A stretch of 64,000 nt of DNA from the IMG/VR virus record IMGVR_UViG_3300028840_002431, positions 172,240 to 236,239 of that record; one strand, given 5' to 3'. Every line of letters starts with the position of its first letter. Position 1 is the first letter of the stretch. Under the pieces are notes generated by a model. That model worked only from the letters and a program-made list of their open reading frames with translations. It made no database searches and was not told the DNA's origin. The position numbers and the translations under genes were made by a program. Shown here one piece after another: positions 4,746 through 26,067 of the stretch. The DNA is from a virus.

Positions 4746-5249
4746 ATGCCCCTGAACCTCTATGACTGCGTCTCTGACGAAGCTAACGTGTCCGTGTGTA
4801 AGAAGTGTAAGAAAGCTCCGGAGATACTGATCCCATGGCGTACAAGCCCAAGGGAAAAGAACCCGCTCATCTGCGTTAAATGCCTCGAAAAAGAGTTCGG
4901 GAGACTCCAGAAGATCGTCAAAGCTGTGGCGTCGATGCTCGACCTGCCGAAGACCGCCAAGCTGAGCGACTTTACGGACCACCTGTCCAGGTTGAAGAAC
5001 GAGCGTGACGAGTACCGACGGTGGCACGACGAGTTAGCGAGTCAATTTGAAGAGGCTATCCAGACGTTACGTGAAGCCATGGTCCAAGCGCCCTCTAGGT
5101 TCATAGGCACGATGGTTGTAGCGGCGGAGAAGGCCGAACCCAAAAATAAACGGCGAAAGAAGAAAGCGAAACCAAAACAGGACATGAAAGTATATACCGC
5201 CGTGAAGGACGACGTGGACATTGCCCTTGGCATTTTCGATGACATATAA
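4746..5249 (+). CDS. hypothetical protein with N-terminal PLNLYDCVSD motif
   Basis: ORF track 167 aa; starts MPLNLYDCVSDE; Cys pairs; basic KRRKKKAKPK stretch. Confidence 0.5.
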   Translation: MPLNLYDCVSDEANVSVCKKCKKAPEILIPWRTSPREKNPLICVKCLEKEFGRLQKIVKAVASMLDLPKTAKLSDFTDHLSRLKNERDEYRRWHDELASQFEEAIQTLREAMVQAPSRFIGTMVVAAEKAEPKNKRRKKKAKPKQDMKVYTAVKDDVDIALGIFDDI

Positions 5250-5442
5250 CAAACAAGGGTACCCCCTGTGCGACGCAGGGCACCAGAGAAAGGAAAAGAA
5301 GACGTTTCTGGCCATGGACCCCGGCGTGGGTTCTGACAGTACGGCCATTTGCTTCTTTACACTCGATACCGAAAAGCCTATATTGAGGTTTACCCTTAGA
5401 ACGGCCCGCAAAACCCTCTGGGATCACATAAGGGAGAGTTAG
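5239..5442 (+). CDS. LWDHL-tail family protein (LWDHIRES)
   Basis: Second in-frame ATG of track ORF 5221 chosen to limit overlap with the upstream gene. Confidence 0.45.
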   Translation: MTYNKQGYPLCDAGHQRKEKKTFLAMDPGVGSDSTAICFFTLDTEKPILRFTLRTARKTLWDHIRES

Positions 5443-5619
5443 ATGCCCAAAAACAAAGACCTAAAAGACCTCTGGGACCACCTCTCTGAACCCAAACCTG
5501 ACATGACCTCCTGTCTCCTTTGCCTCCAAGGGGACAAGCCTTATTGTGACCCGTGTCCCATGAAACACACCGAAAAACAGCAACTCTGGGACCACCTAAG
5601 GGGCGATTTAGGTGTATAG
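5443..5619 (+). CDS. small protein carrying the LWDHL motif at both ends
   Basis: ATG directly after the upstream TAG; 58 aa: MPKNKDLKDLWDHLSEP...CDPCPM...QQLWDHLRGDLGV; below the track size cut-off. Confidence 0.45.
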   Translation: MPKNKDLKDLWDHLSEPKPDMTSCLLCLQGDKPYCDPCPMKHTEKQQLWDHLRGDLGV

Positions 5620-5635
5620 ATACTAAGGAGTTAGA

Positions 5636-5848
5636 ATGGAAACCCTGACAAGATACTTTGTCGGCCTGAGCATCTTTCTCGCGGTGGGTATCACCGTGTT
5701 CGCTTTTGCGCCGGAAGAAGACTCCAGCCACTATGTCGGCTTCGGTTGTGCCCTCGTGGGTGTGATAATAGTTACCACGGCCTTCTTTGAATTCTACGTC
5801 AGAGAGATGAAGACTAAAGAAAAAGAGAAGGAGGCAAGGCGACGTTGA
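5636..5848 (+). CDS. small membrane protein
   Basis: ORF track; SD GGAG; two hydrophobic helices. Confidence 0.45.
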   Translation: METLTRYFVGLSIFLAVGITVFAFAPEEDSSHYVGFGCALVGVIIVTTAFFEFYVREMKTKEKEKEARRR

Positions 5849-5869
5849 TGCCTGTCTGTTTGGTGTTAG

Positions 5870-23791: not shown

Positions 23792-24130
23792 ATGGTTGGT
23801 CCCTGGAATTCCGGCGAGAGAGTAGGTGCAGTGTCCCACGCTGACGATGAGACGTTGTACCTGTTCGGCTACGGGGTGTATGAAGGAGACTTCACTCCTC
23901 CGGAGTACGCGGACGGAGGCCCTGCCGGGTGGTTAGCGATGGGGATGAGAAAATTCGGGGAGAACTGGACCAACCCGCGTATACGTCTGGACAACGGAGA
24001 TGTTGTCTGGGGTTGTGAATGCTGGTGGGCCGACGAAGAAAAAGTCAAACGAATAATCAGAGGCAGAAACGTAGTAATGGTGAGCATCAAGGAGGCGAGA
24101 GAAGAATGGGCCGAAGAATCTCCACCCTAA
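23792..24130 (+). CDS. hypothetical protein
   Basis: In-frame ATG of track ORF 23744. Confidence 0.35.
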   Translation: MVGPWNSGERVGAVSHADDETLYLFGYGVYEGDFTPPEYADGGPAGWLAMGMRKFGENWTNPRIRLDNGDVVWGCECWWADEEKVKRIIRGRNVVMVSIKEAREEWAEESPP

Positions 24131-24402
24131 CATTATTGGCGGTCTTGTTTGTTTCTGGCTGCCCTCAAATCATACCCGACCCCAAGGACCCGGATGATCC
24201 GCCGCCTCCCGCTCCCGTTTGCGACAGAGCGTGTGACCACTACCGCTCCATGGAGTGTGAAGAGGGAGAGCCAACGCCGGAAGGCCGCCCGTGCGAGGAG
24301 GTTTGTAACAATCTCATGGACTCTGAGGTCCCCGGTATGCAGGAATACTACGAGTGTGTCTTAACCAAGGATACTTGCCCGGCCACCAAAGAGTGTGACT
24401 GA
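24106..24402 (+). CDS. Cys- and Pro-rich lipoprotein
   Basis: SD AGGAGG; signal peptide + lipobox LFVSGC; PDPKDPDDPPPPAP and 10 Cys. Confidence 0.45.
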   Translation: MGRRISTLTLLAVLFVSGCPQIIPDPKDPDDPPPPAPVCDRACDHYRSMECEEGEPTPEGRPCEEVCNNLMDSEVPGMQEYYECVLTKDTCPATKECD

Positions 24403-24605
24403 TGAAGAAGATCTATATCCTATCCCACGAAGAGGTCGTGGCGGCTTTGAAGAAGTATATCCACATGACCCTGGAGTTGCGGCCAGAGGATATAGATCAA
24501 CTTGAGATATTCGCTAACGTTGGCAAAGGAATGGAACAGTTAGCCACTACCGGGAGTATCGAGGTAAAGGTGAGTGAACGAGTAAAGCTGGGAGCGAACT
24601 CGTGA
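24402..24605 (+). CDS. hypothetical protein
   Basis: ORF track. Confidence 0.35.
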   Translation: MKKIYILSHEEVVAALKKYIHMTLELRPEDIDQLEIFANVGKGMEQLATTGSIEVKVSERVKLGANS

Positions 24606-24979
24606 TGTCGAGAAAAGGTTTCACACTAATCGAGGGGATGATCGTCGCTGCTATCCTAATGATAATAGCAACCCTTTGTGTCCCGCTCTTCATCCACGCA
24701 AAGTTGGAAAGCAAGAACGGCACTTTCCAATGCACTCTCACAGACAACTCGCGGGTAGAGGGGGAGTTTCACAAAGCTACTCTTAAGGGCGACGTGTGGA
24801 CCATTGTTGATCGTAAGGGAAAGACCACCAAGCTGCCTCCCAAGTCTGTGTGTACCGTCAAAAGAGATAGCCTGGACGGTTTGTCAGAAGTTGCCCAGGA
24901 GGAAACTGAGGAGAAGGCCGAAGATCAGACGGTAGAAGACGATGACGATGAGTTCGGGAGTCAAGATGACGAGTTTTAG
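24602..24979 (+). CDS. type IV pilin/pseudopilin-like protein with acidic C-terminus
   Basis: N-terminus RKGFTLIEGMIVAAILMIIA (prepilin peptidase site G|FTLIE). Confidence 0.55.
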   Translation: MMSRKGFTLIEGMIVAAILMIIATLCVPLFIHAKLESKNGTFQCTLTDNSRVEGEFHKATLKGDVWTIVDRKGKTTKLPPKSVCTVKRDSLDGLSEVAQEETEEKAEDQTVEDDDDEFGSQDDEF

Positions 24980-25287
24980 GAGCCAGATCACTACCACGCG
25001 GGTAGCGCCCGCAGGAGGTGATCAGTGGCTCATTACAAGAGACGTAAGCGCCGTAAGGGCGGAATCAAGGGTTGTTGCGGCATGTGTATGTTGCAAACAA
25101 CCGACGGACGTAGAAACGGCCGAGTGTTAACTTGGCAGGAGAAAAGGGCCGTCTTAGACGCCAAAGACATGTTGGAAGAAGCTCAATCGGCGGGGATAAA
25201 GTTCAGCGCACGAGAAGAGAGACTCCGCAACGGCTATGGAGGCGGTGGAAGGTCGATAATAAGAACTCGATGGTGGAAGCGTAAGCG

Positions 25288-26067
25288 ATGAAATACACGA
25301 CGATCAGTGAAGACTCATGGTTCGGAGCGCACGGGTGGACGCACACCCGGCTCATATACTGGGAAGGCCACGAGCTACGGTTCAATTTTTATTGTGGTAT
25401 CCAGGGTTATTCCACACCGTCTGCCGTAGTGACGCGGGGTATCGACGGGGCATTGTGCGTCGAGTTGGGGCCGGGGGATTTGAACATCGAACCACAAGAT
25501 CAACACGATGGTCCCGGTCATAATTATTTTGAAGCGGACATGGCCAAGCTGTGCCAAGCCCTGGAAAAGAAGTTTGGCGTTAGTGAAGAGGCGAAACTCA
25601 ATCGTCCGCTCAACCTCTTCGATTGCGTCAAAGATCCGGAGGCGTCGGCTGGTGTCCCAGCAGGGGTCACGTTAATAGCCAGGGAACGGCAACGGCACTT
25701 TGAAAAGGGGTATGACGCTGCTTGTGACGATCGGCGTGAGGATGGTTCCTTGGCACAAGCGGCTGTTTGTTACGCTACTTACTTCCCTTTGTATGTTAGG
25801 GATGGGGACGCTTTCAATTTCGTGGACCCGTGGCCGGACAATTGGCCAGCGTCAAAGGACAAGAGAAGGCAACGCGCCGACCCTTATGAAGACTCTATCC
25901 CCAATCCACGCTCCGTGGCGGTGGAAGACCGAATCAACTTGTTGGTAGAGTCTGGCGCTCTGATCGCTGCCGAAATTGACCGGCTAACCCGGATGCACGA
26001 AGCCGAGATGGCACGTCAGAAAGAAGCAGAACAGCGTCTTATCGAGGATAACGACATACCGTTCTAG
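25288..26067 (+). CDS. hypothetical protein with internal NRPLNLFDCVKDP motif
   Basis: ORF track 259 aa. Confidence 0.45.
   Translation: MKYTTISEDSWFGAHGWTHTRLIYWEGHELRFNFYCGIQGYSTPSAVVTRGIDGALCVELGPGDLNIEPQDQHDGPGHNYFEADMAKLCQALEKKFGVSEEAKLNRPLNLFDCVKDPEASAGVPAGVTLIARERQRHFEKGYDAACDDRREDGSLAQAAVCYATYFPLYVRDGDAFNFVDPWPDNWPASKDKRRQRADPYEDSIPNPRSVAVEDRINLLVESGALIAAEIDRLTRMHEAEMARQKEAEQRLIEDNDIPF

Follow-up and report, generated by a model that had tools for sequence, protein, structure and literature searches.

A [YF]-C-[VI] peptide recurring in a huge uncultured phage is a flavour of a common terminal tag on small ORFan proteins

There are four close matches to the short peptide PLNL[YF]DC[VI]xD in a 64,000-nucleotide stretch of virus DNA (positions 172,240 to 236,239 of IMG/VR record IMGVR_UViG_3300028840_002431), which is called the window hereafter and whose first letter is position 1. 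All four are found on the + strand within open reading frames (ORFs), each of which is called as a gene by independent public annotations of this phage as well. The peptide MPLNLYDCVSDE forms the N-terminus of the product of 4746..5249 (+), a 167 amino acid ORFan with a zinc ribbon and a coiled coil, and the core PLNLYDCVSD is encoded at 4749..4778. The 131 amino acid product of 22324..22719 (+) ends with DDMTLFDCVKDG followed by the stop codon, wherein TLFDCVKD (22690..22713) is located one residue before the stop. The overlapping gene 22712..23011 (+) encodes an ORFan of 99 amino acids (96 amino acids from GTG 22721 in the external call) that carries KKPPPLNLYDCIRDV near its N-terminus, with PLNLYDCIRD at 22745..22774. 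The fourth copy, NRPLNLFDCVKDP, is located at residue ~107 of the 259 amino acid product of 25288..26067 (+), where PLNLFDCVKD (25606..25635) sits at the junction of two fused modules. A candidate fifth copy, GLFQCVQETED followed by a stop codon, begins at 8605 (LFQCVQE, 8605..8625, +), five residues before the stop of ORF 8401..8637, which has no call in the external annotation.

The original prediction placed the first four peptides at these sites and held that they are conserved as peptides. Both statements agree with the sequence, as do the codons quoted in their support, and every synonymous site in the Pro and Leu codons varies among the three PLNL copies. The pattern L[YF]DC[VI].D occurs four times in the six-frame translation of the window, compared with 0.03 times in a first-order Markov simulation (maximum 1 in 100) and 0.0007 times expected from amino acid composition. 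The carriers had been described as four unrelated proteins, which is true except for the product of 22324..22719 and residues 1-120 of the product of 25288..26067, which are paralogs (BLASTP E=1e-8, 24% identity). The earlier observation stands and is far from random, but its scope was misjudged, and what had been taken for a second motif is a flavour of the first. Specifically, PLNL[YF]DC[VI]xD is a rare flavour of a far commoner tail, ...K-N-LWDHL-K-D, that ends at the stop codon and that is called the tag in what follows.

The consensus for the whole family is [KR]-x-[TND]-L-[WYF]-[DE]-[HC]-[LVI]-[KR]-[DE]. There are 21 matches in the window to the relaxed pattern L[WYF][DE][HC][LIVM], whereas 0.63 are expected, and all 21 are on the + strand in open ORFs, spread over all three frames. 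Fifteen of these are LWDH[LIV], and the commonest form is [KR]-x-[TND]-LWDHL-[KR]-[DEG]-x-stop. The LWDHL-type tail is represented by ~24 copies in the window and by 48 copies in the ~92 kb sampled from this phage.

All representatives of this tail in the window are encoded on the + strand. LWDHL is located three residues before the stop codon at 323..337 (ORF 164..349), 1714..1728 (1552..1740), 4020..4034 (3816..4046, a double zinc ribbon), 4446..4460 (4272..4472), 6515..6529 (5870..6541), 7668..7682 (7434..7694), 7949..7963 (7694..7975) and 59441..59455 (59147..59467). The same spacing is found for LWDHV at 2522..2536 (2096..2548) and for LWDHI at 5416..5430 (5221..5442). LWDHL at 4715..4729 lies four residues before the stop of 4469..4744, and the PLNLYDC copy begins the next gene; LWDHL at 62619..62633 lies two residues before the stop of 62130..62642. 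The 58 amino acid product of 5443..5619 is tagged at each end, with an N-terminal LWDHL at 5470..5484 and a C-terminal LWDHL at 5584..5598. PLDLWDHL is found in the short ORF 7296..7430 (LWDHL at 7344..7358), which lacks an external call, and the mixed-flavour form LYDHL (1493..1507) is located ten residues before the stop of 1223..1540. Looser variants at the ends of ORFs are LWEHL at 4241..4255 (four residues before the stop of 4046..4270), LWGHL at 2022..2036 (two residues before the stop of 1746..2045), LWDEL at 29198..29212 (two residues before the stop of 28775..29221) and the LFQCV at 8605.

The four [YF]DC copies have the same architecture as the LWDHL tail. They exhibit Asn or Thr at position -1 relative to the invariant Leu, Lys, Arg or Ser at +5, and Asp at +6, and the two flavours are equal in length and in flanks ([TND] at -1, [KR] at +5 and [DE] at +6). 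In addition, there are forms that mix the two flavours, namely LYDHL at 1493, LFDHL and LYDSL just upstream of the window, LWDCL (twice) and LYDHV, and such forms are present both in this phage and in the relative described below. These mixed forms and the shared architecture indicate that the [YF]DC copies do not constitute an independent second motif.

Most family copies are located near the end of a protein. There are 45 copies among 59 (~76%) that lie 1-10 residues from the stop codon, with a mode of three residues, whereas five are N-terminal and nine are internal. Only one of the four PLNL-type copies (two of five if the candidate at 8605 is included) is C-terminal, and the others are N-terminal or located at a fusion junction. 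Copies of the Trp flavour occupy N-terminal and internal positions as well, such that 14 of the 59 family copies are non-C-terminal. The ten residues upstream of the motif are enriched in Pro (1.8x), Lys (2.0x) and Asn (1.8x) and are depleted in hydrophobic and aromatic residues. Judged from these sequence properties, the terminal position and the Pro/Lys-rich upstream region are the signature of a short linear motif (SLiM) on a flexible tail.

To compare the family at the DNA level, the consensus CTCTGGGACCACCTG was searched with up to 3 mismatches on both strands, ignoring the reading frame, in the window, in L003 of the same phage and in L007 of the relative. There are 41 matches, and all but one or two of them are in open ORFs in the L-W-D-H-L frame. 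The matches contain 71 mismatches, of which 56 (79%) fall on the third codon position, 12 on the first and three on the second (chi-square p=1.7e-15), and 11 of the 12 first-position mismatches are synonymous for Leu or change Leu to Val or Ile. Information content around the motif declines to the background level within two codons on either side, and the Asp and His codons of the tag follow background usage. There is no excess of RNA folding in 75-nucleotide windows centred on the motif (mean z of -0.01 compared with -0.14 for random windows), and promoter-like and terminator-like sites in 1..9000 occur at the chance level. Thus, neither frame-independent conservation, nor non-coding copies, nor conserved flanks or structure, as would characterize a DNA or RNA repeat element, was found. 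As read from these substitution patterns, selection on the tag acts at the peptide level.

The codons that follow the tag, encoding [RK][EG] (AGGAG, AGAGG or AAGGGAG), lie 6-8 nucleotides before the start codon of an overlapping next gene at TGATG, ATGA or TAGATG junctions, as seen at 4020..4046, 4446..4472, 5416..5445 and 7668..7697. These codons probably double as the Shine-Dalgarno sequence of the next gene, and this double use may explain the modal spacing of three residues between the tag and the stop codon. A separate observation concerns two other assemblies of the same phage, in which ~14 kb of the window (~323..14283) is inverted. One inversion breakpoint coincides exactly with the base at window position 323 that opens the LWDH codons. 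The junctions (window ~266..322 and ~14284..14456; L003 10165..10367; L034 9640..9870) are mosaics of 21-62-nucleotide blocks drawn from both ends, and the junction block 14395..14456 is inverted in place, wherein ORF 14370..14804 stays open. The rearrangement could be a real complex inversion polymorphism or the result of template-switching, with the caveat that these blocks are shorter than the k-mer of the assembler.

Metagenomic contigs, the longest of 416,539 bp, encode proteins of the window, which indicates that the DNA belongs to a huge uncultured phage of ~416 kb (for its complete genome, see for example ENA ERZ27256798 k141_2638518). There is no nucleotide match to the window among deposited phages. 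A 173-kb IMG/VR contig (L003 and L016) is 100% identical to this phage, wherein L003 is located immediately upstream of the window and L016 elsewhere. A cluster of ~17 kb, formed by L033 1..9510 upstream of the window and by window positions 1..8000, consists of small, co-oriented and often overlapping genes, and 33 of its 57 externally called genes carry the tag. Some of the cluster genes that are not carriers end in near-misses, such as ...NFYSLWHAVMEA at 2988..3260. This cluster looks like a host-takeover or effector module.

The only independent relative with the tag is represented by the 398-kb IMG/VR contig IMGVR_UViG_3300017991_000048 (GC fraction 0.48), from which ~42 kb were sampled. 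There are at least 18 carriers in this sample, and some of the genes are on the - strand, onto which the motif follows them. The carrier bodies of the two phages give only marginal matches to each other. The first Leu codons of the motif are varied in the relative. A scan of all of IMG/VR for codons encoding LWDHL[KR][DE] revealed loci with several carriers in this phage and the 398-kb relative only, and no such tails lie near a marker protein in two relatives at a greater distance (50% and 38% identity at that marker).

The carriers are small (median 93 amino acids), 27 of 56 have at least one CxxC, and searches of Pfam and PHROGs yield weak zinc-ribbon signals and nothing more. Their architectures differ and include zinc ribbons, coiled coils and transmembrane segments. 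When the tails of the 59 carriers are masked, all-against-all BLASTP finds only four related pairs. In the pair formed by 22324..22719 and the first 120 residues of 25288..26067, LFDCVKD is identical at seven of seven positions against 24% identity overall, and the motif closes the domain that is common to both products. Residues ~125-259 of the 25288..26067 product are found as stand-alone proteins in other metagenomes (P0002 and P0003) and match the C-terminal parts of several PHROGs. Since this C-terminal module stands alone elsewhere, including in other phages, and the motif ends the paralog domain, the internal copy corresponds to the old C-terminal tag of a fused module. Other carriers with several copies, in addition to the 58 amino acid product mentioned above, are a protein with two zinc ribbons upstream of the window (NLYDSL and NLWDHL) and a protein of the relative that is tagged at both ends. 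Furthermore, there are three junctions at which a C-terminal tag is followed by the N-terminal tag of the next gene within 43-61 nucleotides (4715/4758, 5416/5470 and 22693/22754). Both observations fit the fusion or truncation of modules at the tag.

The 25288..26067 product itself ends with ...RLIEDNDIPF (26047..26064), which is close to the DDDIPF tip at the C-terminus of bacterial single-stranded DNA-binding protein (SSB), and a stand-alone homolog of its C-terminal module ends with ...PPEELPF. By analogy, this module may imitate the SSB tail or act as its competitor, and the protein would then be an adaptor with two motifs. Acidic tails ending in Phe (...SQDDEF and ...SDDEDF) are also found on two predicted exported proteins, 24605..24979 and 32629..33183, one of which has a prepilin-type N-terminal methylation motif and the other a lipoprotein-like signal. 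These tails may be a third recurrent C-terminal peptide.

Searches for homologs return little beyond this phage. Homology searches with three of the carriers, together with an exhaustive HMMER profile search of 1.84 billion representative proteins, found only proteins of the same genome, two stand-alone C-terminal modules and one spurious eukaryotic repeat protein, and look-ups of two carriers in IMG/VR gave no match. The DNA pattern for PLNL[YF]DC[VI] has seven loci in IMG/VR, all single-copy and located in hydrophobic membrane proteins or tiny ORFs, and these are unrelated. A metagenome scan for codons encoding KNLWDHL[KR][DE] recovered only another piece of the same phage. There are 13 single internal matches (for example, in PAS domains) in 185,579 cellular genomes, which is approximately the estimated chance level, and thus they provide no clue to a host or prophage. 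A profile search of the PDB with the tail gave one match only, NLWDHLQE in human aminopeptidase N (4fyq chain A, residues 452..459, E=0.5), which lies inside the folded catalytic region and was judged to be due to chance. A search of a literature library for an LWDHL-type motif returned nothing relevant.

A strongly selected peptide tag is common to dozens of unrelated small proteins, either end of the protein or a fusion junction is tolerated, and a relative has retained the tag although its carrier bodies have diverged beyond robust recognition. We consider it probable, with some reserve, that the tag is a docking or address peptide that recruits its carriers to one common hub, and that [YF]-C-[VI] is a variant flavour of it. 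Docking had been offered in the original prediction as an alternative to proteolysis, and it fits the peptide-level conservation, the Pro/Lys-rich tails of unrelated proteins and the flexible position, although the proposal that a second docking motif is involved fares poorly. Dozens of fast-evolving and otherwise unrelated small proteins, many of which appear to be zinc ribbons, have been given the tag by this phage, in most cases as their final 8-15 residues behind a flexible linker rich in Pro and Lys. On binding, it might form about one and a half turns of an amphipathic helix that presents the Leu at position 0, the aromatic residue at +1 and the Leu, Val or Ile at +4 on one face, with the His or Cys at +3 on the rim. 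A hydrophobic groove on a single phage- or host-encoded hub would receive this face, and in this way every carrier would be brought to one and the same place or machine. The changes from Trp to Tyr or Phe, from His to Cys and from Leu to Val or Ile would be conservative for such a hydrophobic interface. The N-terminal and internal copies, which often have an additional Pro-Leu (PLxL), would derive from fusion or truncation of modules at the tag, as observed for 25288..26067.

Several types of hub can be imagined, and the following estimates divide among them the probability that we give to docking at a common hub. Perhaps the tag serves capsid loading for co-injection, by analogy with the T4 capsid-targeting sequence (CTS), which is a speculative possibility. 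A hub that resembles a ring or clamp, by analogy with the gp45-binding tails of the T4 family, is rather improbable when taken alone, and the same can be said of a protease or adaptor to which the carriers would be brought, either for timed turnover or to target the host proteins that they bind. Some other partner seems a very slim prospect.

A number of observations weigh against docking at a single common hub. The three variable positions are not independent, because [YF] co-varies with Cys and with Val or Ile (Fisher p=5.5e-4), such that the affinity might differ or a second binding site might exist. Leu at position -2 (PLxL) is enriched in non-C-terminal copies (5 of 14 compared with 2 of 45, p=0.006). 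The ~42 kb of the relative that were sampled show no example of the full [YF]-C-[VI] flavour, and there is no ortholog of any of the four [YF]DC carriers among 5.8 billion proteins. The first Leu codon of the tag is CTC in 14 of 21 cases, compared with a background of 28% (p=2.6e-4), and it is never TTR or CTA. This bias points to a recent spread of the tag in this phage by duplication or recombination, or to some contribution at the DNA level; since the corresponding codons of the relative are varied, we read it as recent spread within the phage rather than as a DNA function. AlphaFold2 models of the 25288..26067 and 7694..7975 products are of low confidence (pLDDT ~44 each), a quality unsuited to fold searches; the short helix that both models place on the motif, after a coil, counts in favour of docking. 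The clamp version of this explanation faces further difficulties, in that the tag is absent from the Pol X-like gene located just beyond the right end of the window, the ligase-domain protein of the window has no match to the motif, and a scan of 90 window ORFs found no clamp family.

The co-variation, the uneven distribution of PLxL, the N-terminal or internal location of three of the four [YF]DC copies against the mostly C-terminal Trp flavour, and the conservation of the peptide across 9-10 residues despite saturated synonymous change could all be explained if PLNL[YF]DC[VI]xD were a separate docking motif. This motif would bind a partner or pocket other than that of LWDHL, and its likeness to the tag would result from aromatic-acidic-aliphatic composition or from shared ancestry. 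However, there are only four or five [YF]DC copies, two of them in paralogs, their flanks and spacing are identical to those of the LWDHL tail, and the mixed-flavour forms occur in both phages. Moreover, the PLxL prefix is found on copies of the W/H flavour as well (KPLDLWDHL and RPLTLWDHL). We therefore consider a separate second docking motif to be unlikely. Less probable still is that a protease, either the adjacent papain-like enzyme (23020..23787, +) or another one of the phage, recognizes or cuts the motif; proteolysis was one of the two readings in the original prediction. The adjacent gene was correctly recognized as encoding a papain-like peptidase (Peptidase_C1, 3.3e-9; Peptidase_C39_2, 1.7e-6), two copies flank a gene junction just upstream of it, one copy lies between the two modules of a fusion protein, and N-terminal copies could be removable propeptides. 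On the other hand, cleavage would be purposeless for the 76% of family copies that lie 1-10 residues from the stop codon, and for most copies, at 1-8 residues, cutting would release a trivial peptide. C39-type peptidases need a double-glycine site; the motif contains no Gly-Gly, nor does it match a known papain or C39 site of another kind. The genes on either side of the protease ortholog (68% identity) in the 398-kb relative are unrelated, and the carrier closest to it there does not resemble those of the window. The protease is also situated among predicted secreted or envelope proteins, and its proximity to the motif is probably coincidental; it is listed here as a neighbour only.

A primarily nucleic acid function, wherein the element is a recombination linker, a regulatory site or a translational-coupling signal that is translated incidentally, would account for the strong DNA consensus CTCTGGGACCACCTG within the phage and its biased first Leu codon. 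It would also account for the resemblance of the post-tag codons to a Shine-Dalgarno sequence for the overlapping next gene, the joining of fused or truncated modules at the tag and the breakpoint of the ~14-kb rearrangement at 323. Such a function is nevertheless highly improbable, given that every copy is in an open frame on the coding strand, that mismatches concentrate at third codon positions, and that the relative keeps the peptide with different codons. There is likewise no flanking DNA conservation and no RNA structure, the promoter and terminator scans are at the chance level, and the [YF]DC and Trp copies differ by changes that are non-synonymous but conservative. The carriers could instead derive from duplicated gene ends whose tails are functionless relics that have not yet diverged, as the tight clustering of carriers and the existence of some demonstrable paralogs might suggest. 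This is just as hard to credit, as the synonymous sites of the tag are well diverged while its amino acids are fixed, the tag persists in a relative with carrier bodies that share no robust similarity, and the bodies differ in architecture. Four further ideas were dropped. Anti-Shine-Dalgarno mimicry by GGGAYCACCU is contradicted by the variation at third positions, and a membrane-targeting amphipathic helix would be longer and would not need a fixed Asp-His. The spacing is wrong for a CaaX box or a tyrosine-sulfation site, and Trp is dominant. A ribosome-arrest peptide is at odds with a distance to the stop codon that varies from 1 to 10 residues and with the existence of N-terminal copies.

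Returning to docking at a common hub, a broader version can be put forward tentatively. The tag may be the address label of a very large arsenal of fast-evolving binders that are all plugged into one machine. This arsenal might comprise more than half of the genes of the ~17-kb cluster and probably ~100 genes genome-wide. The machine might be the capsid interior, which would permit co-injection, or a protease or ring of the host or the phage, and [YF]-C-[VI]/PLxL might then represent a second affinity class or port. If true, a bacteriophage would for the first time be seen to use a SLiM-based protein-sorting code on a genome scale. Apparently, a genome-scale peptide tag on the ORFan proteins of a huge phage has not been described.

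Huge phages have hundreds of ORFan genes without a functional handle, and this is what a tag on approximately fifty of them in one genome supplies. The tag places the carriers into a single functional class and offers a one-peptide bait for their common partner, for which tails such as KVDKNLWDHLKDS and KPPPLNLYDCIRDV could be used. It also marks a site at which modules are seen to be fused and exchanged. Should the carriers dock at the capsid or at a host hub, the tag would mark injected or host-directed effectors, which are candidate anti-defence or takeover proteins, and it would be usable as a portable targeting peptide.

The remaining features of the region are described here for context. 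Downstream of the protease gene, in 23744..27294, are lipoprotein-like, prepilin-like and Tat-signal-like (MNRRQFLRK...) genes and a sulfotransferase gene. The Tat-like gene and the sulfotransferase are retained, together with the protease, in the relative, which lacks the five genes of 24019..26067. This group looks like an envelope or secretion-related module. Pfam domains assigned to specific ORFs are cREC_REC (8015..8338), HD_4 (12607..13104), SprT-like (16457..17170), DUF7873 (38842..39576) and DUF4419 (54409..55482). PTH2, SpoU methylase and ATP-dependent ligase domains are also present in the window without assignment to a specific ORF. An RRM_1 domain with an Arg/Gly-rich tail is encoded on the - strand at 34670..35098 (Pfam match of 2.5e-25 to one of the 90 ORFs, assigned to this ORF from its sequence), and it is kept in the 398-kb relative (L007 13551..13850). 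There are ten tRNA genes in three groups (37372..38373, 52557..52929, 53810..53887 and 57281..57355); a tRNA-His at 37605..37688 is found by ARAGORN only, and a 99-nucleotide tRNA-like match at 37750..37848 is found by Rfam only. Genes for Pol X, a patatin and an AcrVA2-like protein are located just right of the window (L035 14855..19211).

The tag can be compared with several systems in which short peptides or small domains connect many proteins to one partner. Bacterial hub SLiMs, such as the beta-clamp motif QL[SD]LF and the SSB tip DDDIPF, are likewise short terminal or internal peptides that tether many proteins to one hub. However, the beta-clamp motif (Q-L-[SD]-L-F or Q-L-x-L-x-L) differs from the tag, which has no Gln at position 1 and has Asp or Glu where Leu or another hydrophobic residue is required. 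The eukaryotic LC3-interacting region or Atg8-interacting motif (LIR/AIM), [WFY]-x-x-[LIV] with acidic residues before the core, binds Atg8-family proteins, and an example is DDDWTHL of p62. The tag has the same residues at the two hydrophobic core positions, and WDHL resembles WTHL, but its upstream region is basic or Pro-rich and an invariant Leu precedes the aromatic residue. The tag genes have the context of a bacterial virus, with overlapping operon-style genes and a prepilin-like protein. The likeness to LIR/AIM is probably a convergent, low-complexity resemblance. Poxviruses have PRANC/F-box-like C-terminal tails on many ankyrin proteins, which plug into the eukaryotic ubiquitin-ligase system. 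The feature that recalls PRANC is that a virus gives many binder proteins, paralogous or unrelated, one C-terminal handle into a single host machine; however, PRANC is a domain of ~30-50 residues, whereas the tag is a peptide of 8-10 residues, and there is no sequence relation.

The closest parallels are found among T4-like phages. The tails of RB69 gp43, gp55 and gp33 bind the gp45 clamp, as is also stated in the annotation notes of the RB69 record. These C-terminal tails (AY303349) are ...EKKASLFDMFDF for gp43, ...SPSLDFLYEDDN for gp55 and ...KTNTLDFLL for gp33. As with the tag, several different and unrelated proteins of one phage carry a short C-terminal or near-C-terminal tail with a Leu-aromatic-Asp core after basic or polar residues. 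The gp43 tail, EKKA-S-L-F-D-M-F-DF, partially matches T-L-F-D-C-V-KD of the window in S/T-L-F-D-x-hydrophobic. However, the clamp-tail consensus is [ST]-L-[DF]-[FD]-[LM]-[FYL], as in SLDFLY of gp55 and TLDFLL of gp33, and His or Cys is not part of it. In addition, the T4 family has few carriers, all of which act in replication or late transcription, whereas dozens of ORFan proteins of zinc-ribbon type carry the tag. Replisome or late-transcription carriers together with an encoded clamp were not found in the DNA sampled.

The CTS of T4 is an N-terminal peptide of ~10 residues that the prohead protease removes, and its carriers are found in virions. Most copies of the tag, in contrast, are C-terminal, far more genes carry it and it has no sequence resemblance to the CTS, and thus the analogy is functional only. 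The diverse internal proteins of T4 share only this targeting sequence (PMC3012670). In the T-even phages, as here, highly diverse and fast-evolving small proteins have nothing in common except a short address peptide (PMC3012670), and their genes are located in a variable cluster. We therefore classify the tag as a new class of SLiM that probably works like the clamp tails or the CTS while belonging to neither.

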